Shown here: positions 7,739 to 57,030 of the stretch, in pieces
Numbering within the stretch: the stretch's first letter is position 1
How the letters are laid out: every line of letters starts with the position of its first letter
DNA from: a candidate division WOR-3 bacterium
Lineage (GTDB): Bacteria; Hydrothermota; Tepidihabitantia; Tepidihabitantales; JBDRVQ01
Direction of reading: 5' to 3'
Assembly (NCBI GenBank): GCA_039801905.1
Contig: JBDRVQ010000002.1
Span: 3,147-67,146, forward strand
DNA length: 64,000 nucleotides
Position numbers and translations under genes: made by a program
Notes under the pieces: generated by a model
Database searches by the model: none
Seen by the model: only the letters and a program-made list of their open reading frames with translations
Told to the model about the DNA's origin: nothing

Positions 7739-7959
7739 GGATTTTTATTGGCAATAGGAGAGAAATGGGTTTTAACCCCTTCCTCAATTATTCGCTTAAA
7801 GGGATATTGAGTTCAGATATACTTCTTTTTCTATAAGAGGCGAGTAAGATTCTCATTTATCTTTGGTGGATGGGTTTTATATTCCCTTTCGGTCCTTGGC
7901 AAGCTGGGGAGAGGTATTTCCGGAGGCAATTTCCCACATAATTTGAATATATCTCCAGT

Positions 7960-8234
7960 ATCCAGATTAGGCTCCCATTTTTACTTAGGATTAAAGCCTT
8001 AGTTAAACACAGGATTAAACTCTTTATTATCCCTTCTATTAAACTCTGAATTAGACTTCCAATTATGCCCTCTTTTAGAGTATCTATTAAATCCTCAATT
8101 AAACCCTTTATTAAATCTCCGATTAAGTCTAAAATTATACCTTTTCTTAGACCTTATATTATGCCTTTCATTAAATCCCTGATACCATCCCCTGTATGCT
8201 ACACCCCTTTTTATAAAAATAAACCCCTCCTGTT
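7960..8234 (-). repeat. Composite intergenic element, copy 1: ~50-bp conserved core (8181-8234) plus ~220-bp array of ~12-bp-phased YTAAT(T) repeats (7963-8180)
   Basis: Core GATACCATCCCCTGTATGCTACACCCCTTTTTATAAAAATAAACCCCTCCTGTT on plus is the reverse complement of the core seen at 24419-24471 and 56503-56553, and is identical in orientation to 41098-41152. The array has TAAT/ATTAA motifs every 11-13 bp. Confidence 0.85.
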
Positions 8235-8359: not shown

Positions 8360-8470
8360 TTTAACTTCTTCATAGCCCTCTATAATAAATACGGAAATAC
8401 CCCCCAATTTCTGACACTAAATTTCCCCCCTTTTTTATAAGTCTTTGATTTATAATAACTTATTTACTTT
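8360..8470. repeat. Second conserved intergenic module shared with 41215-41330
   Basis: CATAGCCCTCTATAATAAATACGGAAATACCCCCCAATTTCTGACAC is shared between the two loci. Flanking TACCCGATAA and CTTTGATTT..AACTTATTT also match. Confidence 0.7.
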
Positions 8471-10553: not shown

Positions 10554-10612
10554 TTTGATAAATGCCTTCTCGCTTTATTGACTTTTATTAATACCTTAAT
10601 ATATTATTAAGT

Positions 10613-11770
10613 ATGGGCTCATATTATTCTTCCCCACGCCATTACCTCTTTGCCCCGATCCTTGGAGTTTTTATTCTCCTCTTCTCCCTCCTCGGCTTCG
10701 GACGAAGTGAAGGAGAGAGGGAGGCAATGTTTTATAAAAAGTTGGAAGGGAATAAAGTTGTCTGCGAACTCTGCCCCCGCTACTGCTTAATTGAACCGCA
10801 TAAAAGGGGGTTCTGCCGGAACCGGGAAAACAGGAACGGTAGACTCTATTCCATCGTCTATGCTTATCCCTGCTCTGTCAATCGGGAGCCAATTGAGAAG
10901 GCACCATTTTTTCACTTTCTCCCCGGAGAACTCCGTCTCACCCTGGCAACCGTCTCCTGCAATCAACGTTGTAAATACTGTCAGAATTGGGAGATCTCCC
11001 AACGTAGTTTAGAAGAAGTACCCAGTTTCTATCTCCCTCCCGAAGAGGTGGTGAAGACCGCCAAGAAGTGGGGGGTGAAGATAATCTGCTTCACTTATAC
11101 CGAACCAATCGTCTTTTATGAATATATGTATGATATCGCCAAGTTGGCAAGAAAGGAAGGGATAAAATCAGTTGTGGTCACCGGGGGCTATATTAACGAA
11201 ATCCCTCTGAGGGAATTGTGTAAGGTGGTTGATGGAATAAAGGTTGATCTGAAGGGTTTTAACGAAGATTTTTACGAAAAGACCTGCTCCTCAACCCTCC
11301 AACCAGTCCTGGATGCCTTAAAGATAATTAGAGAGGAAGGAGTCTGGTTGGAAATTGTCAATCTGGTGGTACCTTCTCTCAATGATGACTTAAAAGAGAT
11401 AAAGAAGATGTGCCAGTGGATAAAGGAAAACTTGGGAGAAGATGTTCCTTTACATTTTACCCGCTTCTTCCCCAATTATAAGTTACAGCAACTACCGCCG
11501 ACCCCAATCAAGACCTTAGAAGCCGCGCACCAGGTGGCCAGGGAATGTGGTTTGAAGTATGTCTATCTGGGAAACTGCCCGGGGCATAAGTTTGAGAATA
11601 CCTATTGTCCGAAGTGCGGTACTCTTTTGATCAAGAGGGTCGGTATCACAATGACCGAAAACCACCTGAAAGATGGGAAATGTCCAAAATGCGGGGAGAA
11701 GATTCCGGGGATTTTTACTTTGATCCAAAAGAATATGACCTCTGCGGCAAGAAGAAAAAATGAAGAGTAA
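10613..11770 (+). CDS. AmmeMemoRadiSam-system-type radical SAM enzyme (AmrS-like). An alternative start at 10727 (MFYKKLEG) would remove a hydrophobic N-terminal extension
   Basis: KVVCELCPRYCLIEPHKRGFCRNRENRNGRLY..EPIEKAPFFHFLPG..SCNQRCKYCQNWEIS. This is the N-terminal Cys cluster plus the CxxxCxxC radical-SAM motif typical of AmrS/PflA-like activases. Confidence 0.65.
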   Translation: MGSYYSSPRHYLFAPILGVFILLFSLLGFGRSEGEREAMFYKKLEGNKVVCELCPRYCLIEPHKRGFCRNRENRNGRLYSIVYAYPCSVNREPIEKAPFFHFLPGELRLTLATVSCNQRCKYCQNWEISQRSLEEVPSFYLPPEEVVKTAKKWGVKIICFTYTEPIVFYEYMYDIAKLARKEGIKSVVVTGGYINEIPLRELCKVVDGIKVDLKGFNEDFYEKTCSSTLQPVLDALKIIREEGVWLEIVNLVVPSLNDDLKEIKKMCQWIKENLGEDVPLHFTRFFPNYKLQQLPPTPIKTLEAAHQVARECGLKYVYLGNCPGHKFENTYCPKCGTLLIKRVGITMTENHLKDGKCPKCGEKIPGIFTLIQKNMTSAARRKNEE

Positions 11771-18442: not shown

Positions 18443-18486
18443 AAAAGTCAATAGTCCATTGACTTTTTCCCGAAACTAAATAAAAT
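18443..18486 (+). promoter_or_regulatory. Perfect 10-bp inverted repeat (AAAAGTCAAT-n5-ATTGACTTTT) overlapping a TTGACT-16-TAAAAT promoter 5 nt before the metK ATG
   Basis: Read directly from the sequence. A third half-site AAAAGTCAAG lies at ~18377. Confidence 0.45.
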
Positions 18487-18491
18487 GGCTT

Positions 18492-22745
<4,254 letters not shown>

Positions 22746-22747
22746 AA

Positions 22748-24271
22748 TTATTTTAACTTCAACAACTTTTTTACCCGAGAGCCATTAAAAGATAGGAAAT
22801 AAATACCCGATGCCGTTCTTCTTCCGAAGGAATCTTTTCCGTCCCAGAAGAGCCGGTAGGTCCCGGCTTTCCCTCTTTTCCCAATTAACTCCCTGACCAG
22901 CCGGCCGTTTCCATCATAAATAGAAAACTTTACCTCCGATTCCCGGGAAAGAGAATAAAAGATAGAAATCGTCTGCGAAGTTGGATTAGGAAAGATAAGA
23001 AACCTTTCTCCGACGGTCGCAAGCGAATTCTTTTCTTTAATGGAAACAAAAGGCGTTGGTAAGTAATGGTAACCCAAATCAATCCTATCCGTATCATAAA
23101 CCGTATCACTTCTTGTTGTCCAACGGTGAATTAGAGAATCAAGATTCAAGGGAGAGGTCATCAAAAGAGTATCACCAGCATCAACACAAGGACTCTCTTC
23201 CGGTTGCCCAGCAGCAATCTGACTTAAATAATACTCACCAGAAGGTCCCGAAACAAATAAGGGGTCAAGAGAAAAAGCATGCGGTCCGGGTCGGCAGGCA
23301 TAATAATTATTCGGTAGATTTCCCCAAACATCGTTATAGTCAAAAATTAAAGTATCAAGAGTATCCGGTTGACAAGCAATCCCTCCCCCATAAGGAACAA
23401 TACCCGTAGCGATATTTCCCACAATGATATTATTCTTAATCACCGAACTCTTACTGCTTTTCACATAAATCGCTCCCCCATAAGGGATTGCTGTGGAACA
23501 CATATTGGCAAAAAAGGTATTATTAAAAACCAAAGCATTTGCCGAATCAATATACAAGGCACCACCATAAGCAAAACCACCAGTTGTCGCCCCAGCCCGA
23601 TTCCGCACAAAGAGATTGGAAAAGACAACCGGCATCCCCCCAATCAAACACAAAGCACCACCATACCAAAAACCACCACCCGCCGTATCAGCAATCACAT
23701 TCTCCAAAAAATAATTCTGATAAAAAACTCCCGAACCCGTACAATAGATACCACCGCCGTAACGCCAACCACCACCACCCGGACGCTCAATCTTATTCTG
23801 AGCGATTAAATTATAAGCAAAAGTTGGTGAGCCATCCGCATAAACCCCACCACCATAACCAAGAGCAGTAACAGTATTACCAACAATCCGATTCTCAAAA
23901 AATGTTGGACTTCCCCGACAGAAAATGCCCCCTCCGTAACCATAAAGACCACTCACCCGACCATTAGTAATAGTAAAACCGCGAATTACAGTAGCCGGCG
24001 TATAAACCATCGCATTCATCGTGATCACCCGAGCGGTATCGTTACCGTTAATAATCGTTACCTCCTGACCACCTTCACTCAAAAGCACAATCCTATCCCG
24101 GTTGGGCCAAAGGATATTCTCATAATAAATCCCCGGTGCCACCAAAACGGTATCACCACTCAAAGCCCCGTTCAATCCGGATTGAATCGTAAGCGAATCC
24201 CCCGGTACCCGAATCACGCGGGGATAGAGAAAAGAAAAGAAGAAAAAAAGAAAAAGAGATAACCTCTTCAT
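22748..24271 (-). CDS. Secreted right-handed beta-helix repeat protein with T9SS C-terminal sorting domain
   Basis: Signal peptide MKRLSLFLFFFFSFLYP, many YGGGI/YGGA turns, and a C-terminal ..GIYFLSFNGSRVKKLLKLK tail. Paralog of 32353-33903. Confidence 0.6.
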   Translation of the reverse strand: MKRLSLFLFFFFSFLYPRVIRVPGDSLTIQSGLNGALSGDTVLVAPGIYYENILWPNRDRIVLLSEGGQEVTIINGNDTARVITMNAMVYTPATVIRGFTITNGRVSGLYGYGGGIFCRGSPTFFENRIVGNTVTALGYGGGVYADGSPTFAYNLIAQNKIERPGGGGWRYGGGIYCTGSGVFYQNYFLENVIADTAGGGFWYGGALCLIGGMPVVFSNLFVRNRAGATTGGFAYGGALYIDSANALVFNNTFFANMCSTAIPYGGAIYVKSSKSSVIKNNIIVGNIATGIVPYGGGIACQPDTLDTLIFDYNDVWGNLPNNYYACRPGPHAFSLDPLFVSGPSGEYYLSQIAAGQPEESPCVDAGDTLLMTSPLNLDSLIHRWTTRSDTVYDTDRIDLGYHYLPTPFVSIKEKNSLATVGERFLIFPNPTSQTISIFYSLSRESEVKFSIYDGNGRLVRELIGKRGKAGTYRLFWDGKDSFGRRTASGIYFLSFNGSRVKKLLKLK

Positions 24272-24348
24272 TTTCCCTCCAACGCCTTTCTCTAAGACCC
24301 AAATTATACAAAGTTCACCAAAATAGTCAAATGGCGAGATAGATTATA

Positions 24349-24377
24349 GTTGACATTTCCCAAAAATCACCTATAAT
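24349..24377 (+). promoter_or_regulatory. Consensus sigma70 promoter TTGACA-17-TATAAT, 41 bp upstream of repeat-element core copy 2
   Basis: gTTGACAtttcccaaaaatcaccTATAATat. Both hexamers are perfect with a 17-bp spacer. Confidence 0.6.
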
Positions 24378-24418
24378 ATAATAAAAAAGAAGAGCAAAAG
24401 AATTTGATTAAATCCGAA

Positions 24419-24728
24419 AAGGGAGGGGTTTATTTTTATAAAAAGGGGTGTAGCATACAGGGGATGGTATCGGAGACCTAATTTTTAGCCTAATTGGGGC
24501 TCTAATAAATACCTTAAACCTTCGCTTAATCCACCTATTAAATAAAGGTTTAATCACCATATAAAATGGGGGTTTAATCCCTATAATAATGGAAGGCTTA
24601 ATCCGAAACCTAATTCCCTACCTAATCCCAGTGCTAACCAAGAATCTAATTGAGTAAATAATCTTCCGCCTAATTCTATCTCTTATTAATAGATTAATCC
24701 AGAGAGTAAAAGAAAGAGTAAGTTGACT
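24419..24728 (+). repeat. Composite intergenic element, copy 2: core 24419-24471, TAAT array ~24472-24700, ending at a TTGACT -35 box (24723-24728)
   Basis: Core AGGGAGGGGTTTATTTTTATAAAAAGGGGTGTAGCATACAGGGGATGGTATC. The array has YTAAT every 11-13 bp. Confidence 0.85.
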
Positions 24729-24756
24729 TCTCTCCTTTTTCTTTTACTCTTACTCT

Positions 24757-25392
24757 ATGAATCAATATAAAGAATTACTCAAAGAAATTGCCCCTTATAA
24801 TCTCCACCGAATGAAACTTAATCCGAAAAAAGCCTGCCTCTTAGTTATTGATATGCAGAATGATTTCTTAACCCCAGGTTCTGAGGTCTATATTCCAGAA
24901 GGAGAGGCAATTATCCCCAATATCAAAAAACTCCTTACTCTCTTCCGAAAGAAAAGATTACCCGTAATTTATACTGCCCACGTTCACAAAAACCCAAAAG
25001 TTGATGGTGGGATGACTGCGGAATGGTGGCCCGAATTAAAGGCGGGTCGGGTATTAAAAGCCGGGAGTAAAGGGGCGGAGATTCACCCAGCACTAAAACC
25101 AAAGGATGAGTTAGTTATTTATAAACATCGCTACTCCGCTTTTTATAATACTAATTTAGAAATCTGCCTTCGGGGTTTAAAAGTAACGGATTTGGTCATT
25201 ACCGGGGTGATGACGAATATCTGTTGTGAATCAACTGCTCGGGATGCCTTCTTTCGGGACTTTCGGGTATTCTTCTTAGCCGATGCCACCGCCAGCCCTT
25301 TTCCTGAACTCCATCTTGCTACCTTAAAGAATTTAGCCTATGCCTTCGCTTACATCACAACCACCGAAGAGATTATCCAAGTAATAAAATAA
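24757..25392 (+). CDS. Isochorismatase-family hydrolase (nicotinamidase-like)
   Basis: CLLVIDMQNDFLTPGS..LPVIYTAHVH..ITGVMTNICCESTARDA. Confidence 0.7.
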   Translation: MNQYKELLKEIAPYNLHRMKLNPKKACLLVIDMQNDFLTPGSEVYIPEGEAIIPNIKKLLTLFRKKRLPVIYTAHVHKNPKVDGGMTAEWWPELKAGRVLKAGSKGAEIHPALKPKDELVIYKHRYSAFYNTNLEICLRGLKVTDLVITGVMTNICCESTARDAFFRDFRVFFLADATASPFPELHLATLKNLAYAFAYITTTEEIIQVIK

Positions 25393-32352: not shown

Positions 32353-33903
32353 ATGAAGAGGCTAATCTTTTTATCTATTATCTTTGGTATCTCCTTTGCC
32401 CGGATAATTGTTGTTCCGGATTCCGCACCAACGATTCAGGGTGGCTTAAATCTTGCCTTATCTGGGGATACGGTCTTGGTCAAGCCCGGCCAATATCGGG
32501 AGAATATCACTTGGCCCAATCGGGATGGGATTAAACTCTATTCTCTATCCGGTCCGGATTCCACAATCATCAATGGTGGTGGCAACGGACGGGTAATCAA
32601 TATCCCTTCGGGAATTACCCGAGCAACGGAAATTCGTGGCTTCAAAATCATAGGGGGTAAAGCTAATTCCGGTGCCGGTATTTATGCCGGTGGTTCCCCA
32701 ACTATTATCAGAAATAAAATTTGTAATAATACCTGCGCTGGTGGCCGAGATTATGGCGGTGGTATTTTTTGCTATTACGGCACTTCACCCTTAATCATCG
32801 GTAACGAAATTACCGATAATACCTGCTCGGATACCGCAACCTGGAATTATGGGGGCGGCATTTATGTTGATATGAACTCCACCGCGGAGATTTGCTATAA
32901 CCTAATCGCCCGCAATACCTGCTCTCAGGGTTATTGGAACTACGGGGCAGGGATTTATGTTGACTTACGAGCCTCTCCCCTAATCTATCAGAATGTGATT
33001 AAAGAGAATATTAACACCCTTGGTGACCGAGGACACGGGGCTGGGATTTATGTTAGTTATCAGGCTAATGCTCTCATCTTCTCTAATCTTATTATTGATA
33101 ACCGAAACACCTCTGGGTCTTGGAATTACGGTGGTGGAATTAAAGTTGATGGTAGGGCGAAAATTATTAATAATACAATAGCGGGAAATATCTGTTCGGG
33201 TGGCTATTGGGCTTATGGCGCCGGTATTTATATTGAAAGCGACACTTCCATCATCAAAAATAATATCATCGTTCAGAATAGTTCTACTCTTGGTTCCGGT
33301 ATTTACAATAATGGCATAGTAATCAATCGCTATAATGACATCTGGAATAATATTGGTGGCAATTACTATGGCTGTTCTCCGGGACCGGGTGAAATTTCTT
33401 TAGACCCAATCTTTGTTAGTGGTCCCTATGGACCCTATTATCTCAGTCAGACTGCTGCTGGTCAACCGGTAAATAGCCCTTGTGTTGATGCTGGTGATAC
33501 CTTATTGGGTACAACCCCATTAAATTTTGATTCGCTACTTCGCTCTTGGACGACCCGCACTGATTCCGTTCCGGACCTTTCGGTTTTAGATATGGGTTAT
33601 CACTATCCCCGAACTCAACCTTATGTCGGAATTTCTTCCATCTCCTCTAAAACTCCCATCCCTTTCCAAGTCTTCCCCAATCCTTTTCGCCATTTTGTAA
33701 AATTCTCACCGCTAATGAAACCGGCTCCGGCTCAAATTGAAATAACTGATATCTCGGGGAAAATTGTCTATCAATCAGCCTCCTTTAACTATCTCTGGAA
33801 AGGCGTTAATAATTTAGGTCGGCCGCTACCGGCGGGCATCTACTTCTACCAAATTAGGTATAAGAATCGTAACCATTCGGGACGGCTGATAAAGATTGAT
33901 TGA
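32353..33903 (+). CDS. Secreted right-handed beta-helix repeat protein with T9SS C-terminal domain (paralog of 22748-24271)
   Basis: N-terminal and C-terminal blocks align with the 22748 protein (..LSGDTVLVKPGQYRENITWPNRD.. and ..SLDPIFVSGPYGPYYLSQTAAGQPVNSPCVDAGDTLL..). C-terminal tail ..AGIYFYQIRYKNRNHSGRLIKID. Confidence 0.6.
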   Translation: MKRLIFLSIIFGISFARIIVVPDSAPTIQGGLNLALSGDTVLVKPGQYRENITWPNRDGIKLYSLSGPDSTIINGGGNGRVINIPSGITRATEIRGFKIIGGKANSGAGIYAGGSPTIIRNKICNNTCAGGRDYGGGIFCYYGTSPLIIGNEITDNTCSDTATWNYGGGIYVDMNSTAEICYNLIARNTCSQGYWNYGAGIYVDLRASPLIYQNVIKENINTLGDRGHGAGIYVSYQANALIFSNLIIDNRNTSGSWNYGGGIKVDGRAKIINNTIAGNICSGGYWAYGAGIYIESDTSIIKNNIIVQNSSTLGSGIYNNGIVINRYNDIWNNIGGNYYGCSPGPGEISLDPIFVSGPYGPYYLSQTAAGQPVNSPCVDAGDTLLGTTPLNFDSLLRSWTTRTDSVPDLSVLDMGYHYPRTQPYVGISSISSKTPIPFQVFPNPFRHFVKFSPLMKPAPAQIEITDISGKIVYQSASFNYLWKGVNNLGRPLPAGIYFYQIRYKNRNHSGRLIKID

Positions 33904-33933
33904 CAAGGAATTTTTCCAGAATAAAATACAGGT

Positions 33934-34845
33934 ATGGAAAAGCAATTGTTAGAGATTGAAGGATTTAAGGTTGGGGAACCTCTATTCTTAAAGAACTTAA
34001 TTCTCTTCCCTCTCACTAATGGGAATAAAGACTTCGGAAGGGTAGAAATTCTTTCGGAGGCAAAAGAAAAGAAGCATATTGAAGTCCGGGAATTGGCTTC
34101 TCCCAAGATTGATACCGTAATTATTAAAAATAAATCTCCCCACCGGGTTTTCGCCTTAGACGGCGAAGGAATTATTGGTGCCCTTCAAGACCGGGTGATA
34201 AATACCTCCGCCTTAATTGCGGAAAAGAGCGAAATAGAAATTCCGGTCAGTTGTGTGGAAGAGGGGCGTTGGAGTGGCAGTCACGAGTTCCTGAGGGCGC
34301 GAACAATTTCTTATCCTTCTTTACGGGCAATTATCTGTTCTACGGTCTCTTCTTCTCTCCATAAGACAAAAAAATTTGCAACCGACCAAAACCAGATTTG
34401 GAGTAGTATCAAAAAGAAAATAGAGAGTTTTAAGATTACTTCCCGTACCTCTTCTCTTAGGGACATCTATTCTTCTTTCCGAAGACATTTAGAAAGTTAT
34501 CAAGAAGAAGTTGCATTTCTTAAAGACTTAAATGGCCTCTTGGTCTTTGCTGGCGGCAGACTTCTCTGTCTTGATCTATTTGCGAATAAGAAATTATTTA
34601 ACAAATTGAAAGACCAACTCATTACCAGTTACGCCCTTGATGCCTTAGAGATAAAAACCTCTGCTCCTCCCCGGGTCGGTGAGGCAAAAAGATTATTCCG
34701 AGAGATAAAAGAAGCAAAGGTTAAAACTTTCCCTTCTTTTTCTTTGGGAGATGAGATAAGATTTGAGACAAAAGACCTCATCGGCCGGGGCTTAGTATTC
34801 AATAACTCTCTTTTCCATCTCTCCGCTTTCCCAAAGATTAATTGA
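33934..34845 (+). CDS. Conserved hypothetical protein (303 aa)
   Basis: Long ORF with a strong SD context and no motif I can assign. A distinctive IPVSCVEEGRWSG segment is present. Confidence 0.45.
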   Translation: MEKQLLEIEGFKVGEPLFLKNLILFPLTNGNKDFGRVEILSEAKEKKHIEVRELASPKIDTVIIKNKSPHRVFALDGEGIIGALQDRVINTSALIAEKSEIEIPVSCVEEGRWSGSHEFLRARTISYPSLRAIICSTVSSSLHKTKKFATDQNQIWSSIKKKIESFKITSRTSSLRDIYSSFRRHLESYQEEVAFLKDLNGLLVFAGGRLLCLDLFANKKLFNKLKDQLITSYALDALEIKTSAPPRVGEAKRLFREIKEAKVKTFPSFSLGDEIRFETKDLIGRGLVFNNSLFHLSAFPKIN

Positions 34846-36981: not shown

Positions 36982-37030
36982 ATTGTAAAATGCGCTCTTG
37001 ACAGAAAACCATATCCCTTTATAATAAGGG

Positions 37031-37645
37031 ATGAAAAGATATTTCTTTTTCTTATTCCTTTTCCTTTTTTGCTGTGCCCCCCTGCAAGTAGTTACTCCTC
37101 CAACCTTTGTCATCCGGCCCTTGGAAAGGGAGTTGCCAGTGAGTATCGCCAAATTTTTGGGCGAATTCCAAATTACCTTCTATTGGATCGTGAAGGAAGA
37201 GGATTATTCCGGAAGAAGAAACACGCCCCTTTATCTGACAAACGGAAAACTTTTGGGCTATTTCCCTCGGGAGTTTGTGCGCGACTTCAAAATTGAATCC
37301 TGTGGCAAACTGAAAGATGGAAGATTAATCAGTTGGCTAAAAAAACAACAGCGGGTAAAGATTGTTGATAAGTTATTAGGACACGGCCATTTTCTCGTTC
37401 CTCTAAAATCTTTAGCCTCCGACCCTCAAATCCTCCCGCTCGGCTTGCAAGTATTTATCCCTGCTGTCTGCCGGATGAAAATTGGGGAGGAGTTCCATTC
37501 GGGTATTTTTTATACCCACGACATTGGGTCAAAAATTATTGGTAAAAAGATAGACATCTTTCTCGGTGAGAAAGAGAATATTAAATATTTTTCCGCCGCC
37601 AACATCAAAAGTGGGCAAAAGGTTGAACTTTACCTCTTGGAGTAA
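37031..37645 (+). CDS. Lipoprotein with 3D (MltA-like) domain
   Basis: Signal/lipobox-like N-terminus. The C-terminal HDIGSKIIGKKIDIFLG fits the 3D-domain DxGxxIxGxxIDxF pattern. Confidence 0.45.
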   Translation: MKRYFFFLFLFLFCCAPLQVVTPPTFVIRPLERELPVSIAKFLGEFQITFYWIVKEEDYSGRRNTPLYLTNGKLLGYFPREFVRDFKIESCGKLKDGRLISWLKKQQRVKIVDKLLGHGHFLVPLKSLASDPQILPLGLQVFIPAVCRMKIGEEFHSGIFYTHDIGSKIIGKKIDIFLGEKENIKYFSAANIKSGQKVELYLLE

Positions 37646-40859: not shown

Positions 40860-41152
40860 AAAGCACTTCGCTTTGCTCCGAGATTTCACTCCCGATTAGA
40901 CTTTTAATTAGTCTTCCAATTAAACCTCTCATTAGGCTCCTCATTACATCCCGGCTTAGACTTCCCTTTATTTCCCCGATTACCCTTTGCTTTACTCCCA
41001 AGGTTAAACTTGGGATTAGGCAAAAGATTAGGCTATTTATTAGACTAATTATTATTCTATCAATTATTCTTCTAATTAGTCCTCAAATTAAACCCCCGAT
41101 ACCATCCCCTGTATGCTACACCCCTTTTTATAAAAATAAAACCCTCCTGTTT
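40860..41152 (-). repeat. Composite intergenic element, copy 3: core 41098-41152 plus ATTAG/ATTAA array 40860-41097
   Basis: The core is identical in orientation and sequence to copy 1. The array has repeats every ~12 bp. Confidence 0.85.
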
Positions 41153-41214: not shown

Positions 41215-41330
41215 TTATTCATATTCATAGCCCTCTATAATAAATACGGAAATACCCCCCAATTTCTGACACCAAATCTTCCCCTTTTCTCTAACCCTTT
41301 GATTTTTAAGAACTTATTTTTGGGATTTCT
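41215..41330. repeat. Second conserved module, copy matching 8360-8470
   Basis: The 47-mer CATAGCCCTCTATAATAAATACGGAAATACCCCCCAATTTCTGACAC is shared between the two loci. Confidence 0.7.
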
Positions 41331-41849: not shown

Positions 41850-41877
41850 TTGACAATCCTTTATCTTTAATTATGAT
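41850..41877 (+). promoter_or_regulatory. Candidate promoter TTGACA-16-TATGAT, 6 nt before the pepP ATG (leaderless-type)
   Basis: ccTTGACAatcctttatctttaatTATGATtagagaATG. Confidence 0.4.
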
Positions 41878-41883
41878 TAGAGA

Positions 41884-42936
41884 ATGGAAAGATTAGCCCG
41901 TTTGACGGAAATTCTGAAAAGGGAAGGGATTTCCTCTTTTCTTTTTACCGATTTGTTGAATATCCGGTATTTAACCGGTTTTACCGGCTCTTCGGCTTAT
42001 CTTTTATTGGCCGATGGCAAAAGTATCTTCTATACCGACTTTCGGTATCAGGAGCAGGTGAAAAGAGAGGTGAGGGCGGATAAAATTGAAATCGTTAAGA
42101 AAAACTTCTTCTCTTTTCCACCAAAAGAATTGAAGAAATTAAAAAAATTAGCCTTTGAGGAGCATTCTTTAACCTATAAATCATATTCCCTTTTAAGGGA
42201 GAAACTGCCAAAGGTTAAGTTAATTCCCTTTCGGGATGTGGTGGCGGACTTACGGATAAAAAAGGATGAGAAGGAGATTGATTTAATAAAAAAGGCAGCG
42301 GCAATAACCGATTCGGTCTTTTCCGCCATTCTCAATTTTATAAGACCCGAAATGACAGAAAGGGAAGTGGCGCGGAAAATTGATTATTTAATTAAGGAAA
42401 AGGGAGAAGTTGCTTTTCCCACAATCGTTGCCAGTGGGGAAAATTCCGCTCTCCCCCACGCCCAACCCACCGAGAAGAAGATAAGAGAAGGGGAACCGAT
42501 CATCCTTGATATCGGAGCAGCCTTTCAAGGTTATGCCTCGGATCTGACCCGGACCATCTTTCTGGGAAAAGTGCCCGAAAAGATGAGAGAGATTTACCAA
42601 ATTGTCAAGAGGGCTCAGGAAAATGCCCTCTCCCAAATGAAAGCAGGCAGGAAGACCAAGATGATTGATAGTTTAGCCCGAGATTATATAAAAGATAGGG
42701 GTTATGGTAACTACTTTGGCCATAGTTTAGGTCATGGTGTCGGTTTAGCAGTCCACGAAAAGCCCACTCTCTCTTACCTCTCTAATGAAAAATTGCTCGC
42801 TGGTTTTGTCGTGACCGTAGAACCCGGGATCTATCTCCCCGGTTTGGGTGGGGTGAGAATTGAAGATTTGGTTTTAATAAAAGATGAAGGGATTGAGATT
42901 TTATCAAAAAGTGAAAAGGAGTTACTGGTGCTATGA
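41884..42936 (+). CDS. pepP: Xaa-Pro aminopeptidase (M24 family)
   Basis: M24 metal-ligand contexts ..HGVGLAVHEKP.., VEPGIY, and an N-terminal creatinase-like domain. Confidence 0.8.
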   Translation: MERLARLTEILKREGISSFLFTDLLNIRYLTGFTGSSAYLLLADGKSIFYTDFRYQEQVKREVRADKIEIVKKNFFSFPPKELKKLKKLAFEEHSLTYKSYSLLREKLPKVKLIPFRDVVADLRIKKDEKEIDLIKKAAAITDSVFSAILNFIRPEMTEREVARKIDYLIKEKGEVAFPTIVASGENSALPHAQPTEKKIREGEPIILDIGAAFQGYASDLTRTIFLGKVPEKMREIYQIVKRAQENALSQMKAGRKTKMIDSLARDYIKDRGYGNYFGHSLGHGVGLAVHEKPTLSYLSNEKLLAGFVVTVEPGIYLPGLGGVRIEDLVLIKDEGIEILSKSEKELLVL

Positions 42937-53477: not shown

Positions 53478-53588
53478 AAGATTATAAGGGAAAATTAAAA
53501 TTTTTCAACTTAGTGATAAGATTTAACCAGAACTCACCGCGAATAGTTGCCTTGACAAACGAATATTTTTTTTCATATAATTTTAATT

Positions 53589-55928
53589 ATGGAAAATAGG
53601 GAGGTAGCAATGCTTAAATCTCTCTCTATATTTTTCTTATTTTTTCTTGCCTTCGGGGCAAAAGATATTAGTCTTCCGAGCGAACAACCAATAAATCTCC
53701 AAACGCCTGAGACCGACCAAATATCTATTCCCCTTCTCTTAAACTATCAAGGTAAAATTACCGATAATATAGGTAATCCCGTTCGGGACTCTTCCTATTC
53801 CGTAACCTTTCGCTTATTTAATGTCCCTTCGGGGGGAACTGCTTTCTGGAATGAAACCCAGACCATTCAGACCCGAGCCGGTCTCTTCCATACCCTTTTA
53901 GGTAGTGTCACGCCAATCCCTTCTTTACCCCTTGATGGCAACTTATATTTAGAGATGCAGGTCAATCCCAATCCGGCAATGACGCCAAGAGTTAGAATTG
54001 TGAGTTCCGCCTATTCTTATATCGCAAGAAAGTCGGATAGCACAAATTACTTAAATCAGATGGGTGCTTCTACGGGACAGGTCTTAAAATGGAACGGAAC
54101 AACCTGGGCGCCGGGAAACGATGAAGTTGGTGGTGATAATGCTTGGGTGAGAGGAACACCGGATTCGGTCCTTTACACAATAAGGCGATTGGGTATTGCC
54201 CGTGGCGGTTCTAATAATATGCTTTACGGTTCTTATCGGTATACCCATACTAACTTAGGGGTTAGTTGCACTACCGGAACATCAGGGCAGAATTATTATT
54301 ATTGCACGGTTGGCGGTGGGATAAGTAATAAGGCGAGCGGCAATTGGGCAACAGTTAGCGGTGGTGGTTATAATACAGCGAGTATGGCTCAATCAACGGT
54401 TGGGGGCGGTTATTTTAATACGGCAAGTGGTGATTATGCCGTGATTGGTGGTGGAGTGAGTAACCGAGCGAGTGGCTATTCTTCCAGCATTACAGGTGGT
54501 TATAATAATACCGCAACCGCCGACTACGCCACAGTGGCTGGTGGTTATTGCGACTCAGCAAAAGGTAAATATGCAGGTGCCCTTTCTGGCTATCACAATG
54601 TAGCAGGAAGTGCGCTTGGTGATAGTGGAGCGGTGGTCGCGGGTGGTTATAATAACAACGCGAGGAGCATCTATACATTTATTGGCGGCGGTAGAAATAA
54701 CGCCACACTCAATAGTGGAGCGACAGTGAGCGGGGGCATAGGTAATGTCGCAAGCGGTAATCTCGCTACAATTGGTGGTGGCCAAGAAAATTTCGCCAGT
54801 AACTATTACACAACGGTAAGCGGCGGCTTCGGTGATACCGCCACCGGGTATTTAGCAACAATTGCTGGCGGAAGAGGGAATATTGCGAGTGGCAATTACT
54901 CAACGGTTAGCGGTGGTGTTTGGAATCGGGCATTTGGTAATTACGCGACGGTTTCCGGTGGTGACCGGAATATAGCAAACGGTAACTACGTCACAATTGG
55001 CGGTGGCGGCGGAAATAGAGCCAGCGTCAATTATTCGACAGTGGGCGGCGGGTATGAGAACTTTGCCGATAGTTCCTATGCGACAATTGGGGGTGGAAAT
55101 CAAAATCTCGCGCCTCGGGTTTATGCCACAATTGGTGGCGGAAGTGAGAATTTTGCCAATGGTCCTTATGCGACGATTGGTGGCGGATGGAAAAATTGGG
55201 CAACTGGCGACCTTGCTACAATTGGCGGTGGCTACGGAAATATGGCGAGTATTGATTACGCAACAGTTGCTGGTGGATATTGTGATACTTCCGCCGGTCC
55301 ATCAAGTTTCACAACCAATTCCCACTCCGTAGTCTATTTTATTTATGGCAACTCCGCTGCCTTTAATGGCCAGGCCGCAACCGCCTCCAATCAACTTCGC
55401 TGCGGCACACTTTCCAAAGCCGGTGGAAGTTTTACCATTGACCATCCCCTTGATCCATATAATAAAATCCTGAACCACTACTTCATTGAAGGACCGGAGA
55501 TGCTCAATATCTATCGGGGCAGTGTTGTCCTTGATGCCTCAGGCAGAGCGGAGGTGAGACTGCCTGATTACTTCTCCGCCCTGAACCGAAATCCACACAT
55601 CCAGTTGACCGGTGTTGGCTCTTCTGATGTCTATGTTGCCGAAGATATTAAAGGCAACGTCTTTGTCATTGGCGGTAAGCCGAGAACAAAAGTCTACTGG
55701 CTTGTAACCGGTGAACGGCAGGATATCTCAGCCGAGGCAATAAGAAGGTTAATGCCCGTTGAACAACCAAAGATTGGTGAACTTAAAGGAAGGATGCTTG
55801 ATGACGACTTCCTTGTTGGCTGTATGGAGCAGTTGGAGCGAGAAGGAAAGGCAAGTGGCATTGATTTCCGAACCGCAGCAGGGAGAAACAGGTATCAAGA
55901 TACGAAAAGGAGGATGAAAGGTGAATAA
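53589..55928 (+). CDS. Secreted protein with ~20 tandem ~20-aa Gly-rich beta-roll repeats (YadA-head/tail-fibre-like, consensus N-Y-ATIGGG--N-A-G) and a C-terminal 'IDHPLDP' tail-fibre-like domain
   Basis: Signal peptide MLKSLSIFFLFFLAFG; repeat region aa ~230-560; C-terminus ..GGSFTIDHPLDPYNKILNHYFIEGPEMLNIYRG... I could not run a family search. Confidence 0.5.
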   Translation: MENREVAMLKSLSIFFLFFLAFGAKDISLPSEQPINLQTPETDQISIPLLLNYQGKITDNIGNPVRDSSYSVTFRLFNVPSGGTAFWNETQTIQTRAGLFHTLLGSVTPIPSLPLDGNLYLEMQVNPNPAMTPRVRIVSSAYSYIARKSDSTNYLNQMGASTGQVLKWNGTTWAPGNDEVGGDNAWVRGTPDSVLYTIRRLGIARGGSNNMLYGSYRYTHTNLGVSCTTGTSGQNYYYCTVGGGISNKASGNWATVSGGGYNTASMAQSTVGGGYFNTASGDYAVIGGGVSNRASGYSSSITGGYNNTATADYATVAGGYCDSAKGKYAGALSGYHNVAGSALGDSGAVVAGGYNNNARSIYTFIGGGRNNATLNSGATVSGGIGNVASGNLATIGGGQENFASNYYTTVSGGFGDTATGYLATIAGGRGNIASGNYSTVSGGVWNRAFGNYATVSGGDRNIANGNYVTIGGGGGNRASVNYSTVGGGYENFADSSYATIGGGNQNLAPRVYATIGGGSENFANGPYATIGGGWKNWATGDLATIGGGYGNMASIDYATVAGGYCDTSAGPSSFTTNSHSVVYFIYGNSAAFNGQAATASNQLRCGTLSKAGGSFTIDHPLDPYNKILNHYFIEGPEMLNIYRGSVVLDASGRAEVRLPDYFSALNRNPHIQLTGVGSSDVYVAEDIKGNVFVIGGKPRTKVYWLVTGERQDISAEAIRRLMPVEQPKIGELKGRMLDDDFLVGCMEQLEREGKASGIDFRTAAGRNRYQDTKRRMKGE

Positions 55929-56431: not shown

Positions 56432-56460
56432 TTGACAAATTATAAGTATTAGTTTATAAT
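56432..56460 (+). promoter_or_regulatory. Consensus sigma70 promoter TTGACA-17-TATAAT, 42 bp upstream of repeat-element core copy 4
   Basis: gTTGACAaattataagtattagttTATAATt. Confidence 0.6.
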
Positions 56461-56502
56461 TAGAGTAAACTAAAAAGCGGATAAGGATTGGTTTCCAAAA
56501 GA

Positions 56503-56790
56503 AGGGAGAGTTTATTTTTATAAAAAGGGGTGTAGCATACAGGGGATGGCATCCGGGGTCTAAATAGGGGTTTAATAAGAAGGATAATAGAAAGTCTAAT
56601 TAAGGGGATAATAGAGACTCTAATAGAAGATATAATATAATGGTTAATAGAGGTGGTAATTGGGTGGTTAATTGGGAGTCTAACCTAAGGTCTAATGATA
56701 ACCCTAATTGGAACAATAACCGAAGGTCTAATTGCGAGACTAATTGAGAAAATAACTGAGGGCTTAATAAAGTTAATCTCCGGATTGACT
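56503..56790 (+). repeat. Composite intergenic element, copy 4: core 56503-56553, TAAT array ~56554-56784, ending at TTGACT (56785-56790) of a TTGACT-16-TAGAAT proximal promoter
   Basis: Core GAAGGGAGAGTTTATTTTTATAAAAAGGGGTGTAGCATACAGGGGATGGCATC. The array has GKYYTAAT units. Confidence 0.85.
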
Positions 56791-56838
56791 TTTTTTAATA
56801 GTTTGATAGAATAAAGGTTAAGAAAAAGAGGAGTTATT

Positions 56839-57030
56839 ATGCCAGTACCAAAGAGAAGACATTCAAAGACACGTGGGCGAAAACGCCGAACCCACTGGAA
56901 ATTAGACCCACCAAACTTAACCAGTTGCCCCCACTGCCATGAACCGAAACTTCCTCATCATATCTGCCCCCATTGTGGTTGGTATGCGGGAAGGGAGGTT
57001 ATGGTCGCAAAGAAAAAAGAAGAGAAGTGA
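56839..57030 (+). CDS. rpmF: 50S ribosomal protein L32
   Basis: [42 protein letters not shown]; SD AAGAGGAG 7 nt upstream. Confidence 0.9.

Follow-up and report, generated by a model that had tools for sequence, protein, structure and literature searches.

An invariant core and a 12-nt-phased TAA array upstream of a leaderless isochorismatase gene in a candidate division WOR-3 bacterium: a probably non-coding element that may act as a protein-binding repeat RNA

What kind of unit lies upstream of an isochorismatase-family gene in a candidate division WOR-3 bacterium, where a consensus promoter, a conserved core and a long run of evenly spaced TAA triplets end beside a second promoter? We addressed this question in a 64,000-nt stretch of contig JBDRVQ010000002.1 (GenBank assembly GCA_039801905.1, positions 3,147 to 67,146 of the forward strand), here called the window. 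The two promoters, P1 and P2, belong to two separate units, the element and the isochorismatase gene, respectively. By analogy with known repeat RNAs, we give a probability of about 0.5 to the reading that the element, copy 2 of a family, is a paralogue of a non-coding RNA gene with a (UAA-N9)n tail to which the subunits of one oligomeric protein attach in large number, as in the TRAP and CsrB systems. The features of copy 2 are:

24303-24330, minus strand: divergent promoter TTGACT-16-TATAAT (11/12), from the consensus scan, back to back with P1
24350-24377, plus strand: P1, TTGACA (24350-24355), 16-nt spacer, TATAAT (24372-24377), 12/12 match
24378-24421, plus strand: A-rich leader from P1 to the core, sequence unconserved, predicted transcription start site near 24384
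24422-24478, plus strand: invariant core, 57 nt, GGAGGGG-TTTATTTTTATAAAAA-GGGGTGTAGCATACAGGGGATGGTATC..., with an ATG at 24464
24479-24721, plus strand: array of 21 twelve-nt units, 19 with TAA in phase with the core
24703-24750, plus strand: inverted repeat, 5' arm 24703-24718 (last two array units), 3' arm 24735-24750 (P2 spacer and -10), -35 in the loop
24723-24750, plus strand: P2, TTGACT (24723-24728), 16-nt spacer, TACTCT (24745-24750), a leaderless-type promoter
24757-25392, plus strand: isochorismatase-family gene (PF00857), starting 6 nt past the P2 -10

The original prediction described the order promoter, core, array and second promoter, and we recovered every one of these features with small corrections only. 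P1 had been given as TTGACA-17-TATAAT at 24349-24377; both hexamers match the sigma-70 consensus perfectly, the spacer is 16 nt long and the promoter starts at 24350. The distance from P1 to the core, given as 41 bp (42 bp in copy 4), is a figure that depends on the core start chosen. Measured to the core ATG, which is the first ATG 3' of P1, the end of the -10 lies 87 nt away in copy 2 and 86 nt in copy 4, and 85, 91 and 85 nt in the orthologues L004, L003 and L143; the leader keeps a length of ~41-46 nt across five copies or orthologues despite its sequence change. Only five sigma-70 promoters in the window match the consensus at 12/12 positions, and two of these precede cores, namely P1 of copy 2 and P1 of copy 4 (56432-56460). 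From 24422 onward the core of copy 2 reads GGAGGGGTTTATTTTTATAAAAAGGGGTGTAGCATACAGGGGATGGTATC. Its ATG (24464) opens a 5-codon frame that is closed by the first TAA of the array.

Four copies of the element were found in the window, with core ATGs at 8188 (minus), 24464 (plus), 41105 (minus) and 56546 (plus). The other three copies are arranged as follows:

7967-8230, minus strand: copy 1, core 8230-8174, 18-unit array 8173-7967
7738-7711, minus strand: P2 of copy 1, ~225 nt past the array, then gcvT (7698-6601)
40896-41147, minus strand: copy 3, core 41147-41091, 17-unit array 41090-40896
Downstream of copy 3, minus strand: hairpin, P2 (40843-40816) and the FTCD gene (ATG 40810)
56432-56812, plus strand: copy 4, P1 56432-56460, core 56504-56560, 18-unit array 56561-56767
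Downstream of copy 4, plus strand: 7-bp hairpin and U7 (56772-56796) overlapping the P2 -35, P2 (56785-56812) and rpmF (56839-57030)

A 21-mer of the core gave four matches in the window versus 0 expected, and seven consecutive TAA triplets at 12-nt spacing were observed 37 times, all within the four arrays, versus 0 in 100 shuffles. When the copies were aligned, the core was near-identical and beyond it only T-A-A (often followed by T) was conserved, every 12 columns and in the same register, the sole length difference being a 12-nt insertion in copy 2. The family has two further loci: a degenerate fifth element that lacks the canonical core and has ~12 TAA units, some of them irregular (L140, 11100-11250), and a sixth upstream of an HU gene in a sister metagenome-assembled genome (MAG; L002). 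All 6/6 loci are co-oriented with the next gene (gcvT, isochorismatase, FTCD, rpmF, HU and one of unknown function). Full copies carry 17-21 units, and over 106 units from six independent arrays the three TAA positions hold T in 101/106, A in 104/106 and A in 106/106. The unit consensus is RGYYTAATYRRR, which can also be read as RGY-YTA-ATY-RRR. The sense strand is purine-rich and C-poor in 5/6 arrays and weakly structured, the spacers of copy 2 being C-richer than those of other family members. All that the paralogous arrays have in common is TAA, the phase and the core.

The organism is recorded as a candidate division WOR-3 bacterium and is represented by the MAGs JBDRVO, JBDRVP, JBDRVR, JBDRVT, JBDRVU, CBFGIZ and CBFGKE; JBDRVO-VU derive from samples of the Jinze/Tengchong springs, and the locus is present in the Logan runs SRR27730040 and SRR27730042. 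Only one other species-representative genome has the core 21-mer. It was absent from JGI metagenome contigs, where a second scan matched only a eukaryotic telomere, and no core was present in the viral contigs, plasmids or phages searched. Relatives at 68-86% protein identity have no element at the orthologous isochorismatase and rpmF loci, and a hidden Markov model of the core had no match in ~110 kb of DNA from related WOR-3 genomes. The array pattern by itself is unspecific, with >120 matches in AT-rich viral contigs. By these searches the family is lineage-specific and belongs to one WOR-3 species cluster. The short-read contigs of L001, L003, L126 and L127 end within or beside arrays; copy number in MAGs is thus probably under-counted, since such contigs break at arrays. 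A regular ~16-kb spacing of copies was considered and refuted, as the fifth element sits 8.7 kb from copy 1.

To see which positions matter, copy 4 and its orthologue in L143 (PlsX 93% identical) were the best pair. Over 216 nt of array they differ by 42 substitutions and no indels. TAA had changed at 1/54 positions and spacer positions 4-11 at 39/144 (27%), a clear difference (Fisher p = 1.6e-5, binomial 8e-7). At four-fold degenerate sites of four flanking genes 60/504 (12%) differ, so that the spacers change faster still (p = 3e-5). Only one base of the core had changed. Results of this comparison indicate that only TAA and the 12-nt phase are under selection in the array. This point is absent from the original prediction, and the understanding of the element turns on it. 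With 28 transitions and 14 transversions the substitutions show an ordinary spectrum that is not A-specific, and spacer diversification like that of diversity-generating retroelements was rejected on this ground.

The P1 hexamers are identical in the window, L143 and L003, while the P1 spacer and leader carry substitutions. Since the hexamers stay intact as the spacer diverges, P1 is likely to be real. In L004, the orthologue of copy 2, the P1 hexamers are also kept and the flanks have diverged. Window positions 24300-24870 and L004 640-1206 are unrelated upstream of P1, and their leaders and the first halves of their arrays have diverged. The two are 100% identical starting at mid-array and on through the gene, which points to a recombination junction inside copy 2; otherwise this pair is uninformative on selection.

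Is the array then a part of the gene's promoter? P2 was found as previously described, with TTGACT at 24723-24728, a 16-bp spacer and TACTCT 6 nt before the ATG, and a search for a GGAGG-like sequence before this ATG agreed with the earlier view that no Shine-Dalgarno sequence is present. P2 of copy 2 is only an 8/12 match with a weak -10 (3/6) and is missing from the output of the consensus scan. The homologues start at the position of this ATG (24757), and their N-termini align; some homologues carry a Shine-Dalgarno leader instead. At least nine other long open reading frames (ORFs) in the window, including FTCD behind copy 3, have 10-12/12 promoters with the -10 ending 5-8 nt before the ATG:

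10578-10613, 18459-18492, 32253-32219, 33900-33934, 36998-37031, 40843-40808, 41850-41884, 53508-53472 and 53552-53589: leaderless-type promoters in the window

Leaderless mRNAs therefore appear to be common in this organism. In the sister MAG contig L125 (GCA_039802025.1, JBDRVP010000023.1), which encodes an identical isochorismatase protein, an array of clustered regularly interspaced short palindromic repeats (CRISPR) ends 4 nt before the same TTGACT, and the P2 hexamers and spacing are kept behind it. Likewise, P2 of rpmF (TTGACTTTTTTTAAT...) behind copy 4 is kept in the element-free relatives L145 and L146. The gap from array to -35 is 1 nt in copy 2, ~17 in copy 4, ~52 in copy 3 and ~225 in copy 1, with no fixed phase. 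The array was said to abut the -35 also in copies 3 and 4, which proved right for copy 2 only; the distance of ~225 given for copy 1 was reproduced. As P2 persists behind a CRISPR array or without the element, it is the gene's own promoter and does not need the array. Judged by geometry and retention, P2 is a typical leaderless promoter of this genome, independent of the array. The idea that the array acts as the upstream region of P2 consequently gained no support, and a role as UP-element or activator of P2 was rejected on the variable spacing and the persistence of P2 without the array. The proposal of tandem promoters gained indirect support from the intact P1 hexamers in three lineages and the leaderless-gene geometry of P2, and the layout as a single promoter region had to be given up.

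The L125 CRISPR array (positions 1-215) has a 29-nt repeat, GTTCCAATCTGCCAAAGAGGAATTTGAAC, and 38-nt spacers, and occupies the site where the window has the TAA array; this repeat was not found in the window.

We examined whether the array could code for protein and rejected this in six frames, for want of a start codon, because of internal stops and because the invariant bases fit no coding frame. The TAA frame is that of the core ATG and reads M-V/A-S-G/E-x-stop, after which every fourth codon is a stop. None of ATG, GTG and TTG occurs in the L-I frame (YTA-ATN), which is preceded by TAG in the core and contains internal stops in 4/6 arrays, 7 observed vs. ~7.7 expected from position-specific composition. 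Bottom-strand frames are no more open than pyrimidine richness predicts, and start codons are absent from them. The invariant A and T occupy third-codon positions in two other top-strand and two of three bottom-strand frames; in the remaining bottom frame the TAA triplet is an invariant TTA Leu codon. Counts of synonymous and non-synonymous changes were 12/21 for the best array frame vs. 46/25 in plsX, with no coding-like frame, and the only ATG-started ORF used as a search query returned no homologue. The element is probably non-coding and would give an RNA of ~0.35 kb, whose action as RNA we infer.

Searches for known RNA classes were negative. Rfam covariance models gave 0 matches in the window at gathering score, and copies 1 and 2 only chance-level matches at E up to 10; a literature search found no described regulatory RNA in WOR-3. 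ARAGORN found no tRNA or tRNA-like structure, and the likeness of the core to a tRNA 5' half was judged to be chance, as was the T-arm resemblance of GGGTTCTAATCCC, which lies upstream of copy 1. A sigma-70 promoter within the core, with TAGCAT 7 nt ahead of the ATG, was rejected, its -35 not being conserved, and a core G-quadruplex was rejected for its too long loops and unconserved G tracts.

We next compared the element with families of repeat arrays, and found it to lie outside Rfam families, CRISPR, arrays of the tandem interspaced guide RNA (TIGR) type, TRAP sites, CsrB/Rsm RNAs, Rho utilization (rut) sites and iteron centromeres. Like CRISPR and TIGR loci, it has a promoter and a leader, then short conserved elements with variable '9-nt spacers'. 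CRISPR repeats, however, are >=23 nt long, whereas the 'repeat' here is 3-5 nt and a degenerate consensus runs through the spacers; what separates orthologous arrays is point substitution and not spacer turnover, and membership was rejected as the only repeated element is TAA(T) every 12 nt. TIGR arrays consist of two alternating 8-12-nt repeats with box C/D motifs, 9-nt spacers and ~36-nt units, and adjoin a Tas gene (PMC12045711). Here we see a single 3-5-nt motif without alternating repeats, and the neighbours are housekeeping genes; no gene for a Nop-domain Tas protein was seen among them, a statement about the neighbours since the window was not scanned exhaustively for Nop domains.

The TRAP (G/U)AG arrays of the Bacillus trp leader and of trpG and trpP mRNAs are closer, with many conserved triplets and unconserved spacers on a transcript. 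One TRAP oligomer subunit binds each triplet, and binding competes with nearby hairpins. TRAP sites have 9-11 GAG/UAG with 2-3-nt spacers, whereas the element has 17-21 UAA with spacers of exactly 9 nt, a 57-nt core and a dedicated promoter, and it lies at several unrelated loci, no trp link being found. The CsrB and RsmX/Y/Z small RNAs resemble the element: their genes, ~0.1-0.4 kb long, are intergenic and multicopy, have promoters of their own and carry ~5-22 short motifs, between which the sequence drifts among paralogues. In those RNAs GGA is displayed in hairpin loops at irregular spacing, whereas the element has UAA in a largely unstructured RNA and at a strict 12-nt period. The AUACAGGGGAUGGU stretch of the core may resemble the consensus for CsrA from systematic evolution of ligands by exponential enrichment (SELEX), RUACARGGAUGU. 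Membership proper in the TRAP or CsrB families was rejected, given that UAA with exactly 9-nt spacers differs from both. The rut sites share a ~12-nt period, a short pyrimidine-containing motif and untranslated, poorly structured RNA (YY precedes UAA in most units); yet they are C-rich and G-poor with YC constrained, while the element has G-rich, C-poor spacers in 5/6 arrays, a drifting YY and only UAA conserved. Many short conserved motifs with free spacers mark protein-binding repeat RNAs, and the element has both. By analogy it may share their working principle and work like those families, without being a member.

How might such an RNA work? P1, a consensus sigma-70 promoter, would start transcription ~80 nt upstream of the core ATG. 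The transcript would carry the 57-nt invariant core and then, in fixed register, 17-21 UAA triplets exactly 12 nt apart. The (UAA-N9)n tail would form a track for many subunits of one oligomeric RNA-binding protein, a putative ring or filament in which each subunit would span 12 nt and read little beyond UAA, and the core would nucleate or position this protein. The RNA may titrate or scaffold the protein in trans, or couple its occupancy to 3'-terminal hairpins in cis. Such an RNA track best fits units that are informative at 3 of their 12 nt, set on a rigid ruler with free spacers, 17-21 in number and in fixed register with a conserved, nucleation-like core, as well as the dedicated strong promoter, the strand co-orientation and a sense strand that is rich in purines and weakly structured. 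Units with about 3 informative nt in 12 and free spacers are typical of oligomeric binders of single-stranded RNA (TRAP, CsrA, Hfq), not of double-strand operators. That P1 fires and that a protein partner exists we infer.

Several results weigh against this reading. Transcription is deduced only from the conservation of the promoter, and in copies 1 and 3, the 'long' ones, the 100 nt next to the core lack a strong sigma-70 promoter. The analysis brought up no candidate for the binding protein, nor does a dedicated gene adjoin any copy. The core has no stable or covarying RNA fold (z about 0), and its lone small hairpin, AUAC/GUAU, is broken in copy 4. The terminator scan found no canonical terminator after the array in copies 1-3. 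Finally, the comparison has a depth of only two or three close lineages.

Another version of the track, which we think unlikely, is that the core and (UAA-N9)17-21 could be the assembly track of an undescribed bacterial ribonucleoprotein, nucleocapsid-like or TRAP-like and without known homologue; a related possibility would be an in-frame stop-codon ladder behind the 5-codon frame, with a role tied to the ribosome or to release factors.

A protein could also polymerise on the DNA itself, along 12-bp TAA repeats and nucleated at the core palindrome TTTATAAA. Set between P1 and the downstream promoter, the filament could be a roadblock or an insulator, or it could serve chromosome organisation, as compared with TubR, ParR and omega. 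The TubR/tubC 12-bp repeats, ParR/parC and the omega heptads are likewise fixed short-period direct repeats beside promoters; such centromere or operator iterons are bound cooperatively as a filament, and filaments on 12-bp iterons are known from the TubZRC system. The strict period in fixed register with the core, the arrays adjoining promoters, the presence of at least 5 elements within ~57 kb and a core without an RNA fold are consistent with this idea. Iterons, however, are conserved over most of the repeat and lie beside partition or regulator genes on plasmids, whereas only 3 bp per unit are conserved here and the loci are chromosomal and scattered with no cognate gene adjoining. We rejected membership in iteron or centromere arrays on these grounds (3/12 bp conserved; no cognate binding-protein or partition gene beside any copy). 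With the rest of each 12-bp unit drifting at or above the neutral rate, little information is left for duplex recognition, and no partition or regulator gene stands beside the copies. The arrays keep neither a constant distance (1 to ~225 nt) nor a helical phase relative to the P2 -35, and P2 is retained without the array. The purine bias of the sense strand and the co-orientation of 6/6 loci with transcription and with P1 also argue against a DNA site, which we regard as doubtful.

The third possibility, to which we likewise give a low probability, is that the element is a cis-acting leader or attenuator: P1 transcripts would enter the downstream gene, and protein on the UAA repeats would decide, TRAP-like, whether a 3' hairpin forms. 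Here the original prediction had noted a complementarity just before the isochorismatase ATG. It is real and longer than claimed: AGAGTAAAAGAAAGAG (24703-24718) pairs with CTTTTTCTTTTACTCT (24735-24750) over 16 nt at 94%. The resulting hairpin has a 17-bp stem with a minimum free energy of -20 kcal/mol at 37 C (z = -2.3; 5/200 shuffles were as stable), and would cover the P2/ATG region. Copy 3 has a different hairpin ahead of its -35. Copy 4 has a weak terminator-like hairpin with a 7-bp A/U-rich stem, in which the final stretch with TAA pairs with the ancestral -35 and behind which stands the ancestral T7. In copies 2, 3 and 4 the 5' arm of a hairpin is thus made by the final, degenerate TAA units, with U7 after that of copy 4, all elements are co-oriented with the next gene, and no canonical terminator separates array and gene in copies 1-3, all in line with attenuation. 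Yet hairpin position and sequence differ between copies, and the U7 and -35 of copy 4 are ancestral, being present without the element in L145. The array ends tend to pair locally, with no common design across copies. The 17-bp stem of copy 2 has no U tract; its 3' arm is retained in L125 without the 5' arm, while L004 is identical across the hairpin. As for occlusion of the initiation region in the long transcript, the hairpin exists, but only copy 2 has it, its 3' arm consists of nothing but the P2 spacer and -10 kept in L125, and it is A/U-rich in a hot-spring organism; at hot-spring temperatures such A/U-rich stems are doubtful. The scan lists no canonical G+C-rich hairpin with a U tract for the 3' ends of the elements, where copy 4 has its A/U-rich stem and U7, and nowhere in the window do canonical terminators exceed the chance frequency. 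Moreover, the downstream genes are functionally unrelated (one of the six is of unknown function), each has its own strong or leaderless promoter, and copy 1 sits 225 nt from its promoter. Lacking a Shine-Dalgarno sequence, the leaderless genes would be translated poorly from a long P1 transcript.

A link to translation is very improbable, be it through the 5-codon ORF (M-V/A-S-G/E-x) with its in-frame ladder of TAA stops or through an array encoding a peptide of four-residue repeats (S/G-L-I-K/E). Every TAA is in frame with the core ATG, and the only hypervariable base of the invariant core is the wobble position of a Ser codon, TCA/TCG/TCC (24464-24481 and equivalents); the unit consensus can be read in the YTA-ATY frame given above, and the 12-nt repeat of a related genome is open as (x-L-G-S)n. 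However, the other two wobble positions of the mini-ORF never vary, and there is no usable Shine-Dalgarno spacing, GGGG standing directly at the ATG. The L-I frame has no start codon and has internal stops at the number expected from composition, with no coding-like frame or ORF homologue, and eighteen stops have no known use. We also observed a GTG-TAG start-stop pair in another frame, 16 nt upstream.

A functionless decayed minisatellite or a selfish intergenic repeat of BOX/REP type would suit the confinement to one species cluster, the absence at orthologous sites in relatives (68-86% protein identity), the degenerate core-less copy and the recombination junction inside copy 2, but we consider it highly improbable, as neutral decay would hit triplets and spacers equally, whereas 53/54 TAA positions were kept without indels vs. 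27% spacer change, and paralogous arrays share nothing beyond TAA, phase and core.

Some further observations concern the surroundings of the copies. A 65-nt block is 94% identical between copies 1 (8369-8433, minus) and 3 (41224-41288). It lies 150-200 nt upstream of the core, in the copies without P1, and has a perfect TATAAT on the strand opposite the element; it is also seen in L001 at ~400-450 and, diverged, in L140 at ~11010-11040. The region L140 10990-11260, ~470-600 nt to the left of the window start, includes a block resembling it. The degenerate fifth element there is co-oriented with a downstream gene for a 430-amino acid protein without a Pfam match. Between the copy 1 array and the gcvT promoter (7740-7965, minus) no glycine riboswitch or other Rfam match was found at E up to 10; gcvT operons often carry a glycine riboswitch. 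The divergent promoter at 24330-24303 drives a minus-strand gene (22748-24271) annotated as a beta-helix/Por_Secre_tail protein. Contig L138 (GCA_039801565.1, JBDRUX010000002.1) begins, at positions 1-192, with a 12-nt periodic array of another kind (G-Y-N-R-C-Y-Y-S-G-K-R-R), and an isochorismatase gene of 68% identity follows it; one plus-strand frame is open as (x-L-G-S)n, and the array may be a real repeat protein or another periodic element. At 54310-55286 in the window, at least nine 45-nt periodic repeats (GG.G..N.AS-type) lie in an ORF of 779 amino acids (53589-55928) that precedes a Por_Secre_tail protein and is probably a repeat-rich secreted protein.

If the reading as a protein-binding repeat RNA is true, the element would be a natural case of selection on only a trinucleotide and a 12-nt ruler over >200 nt, and would point to a new oligomeric nucleic-acid-binding protein in the uncultured thermophilic phylum WOR-3, for whose discovery the element is a defined bait. 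The organism also relies heavily on consensus promoters placed 5-7 nt before the ATG of leaderless genes, which matters for the annotation of its genome.

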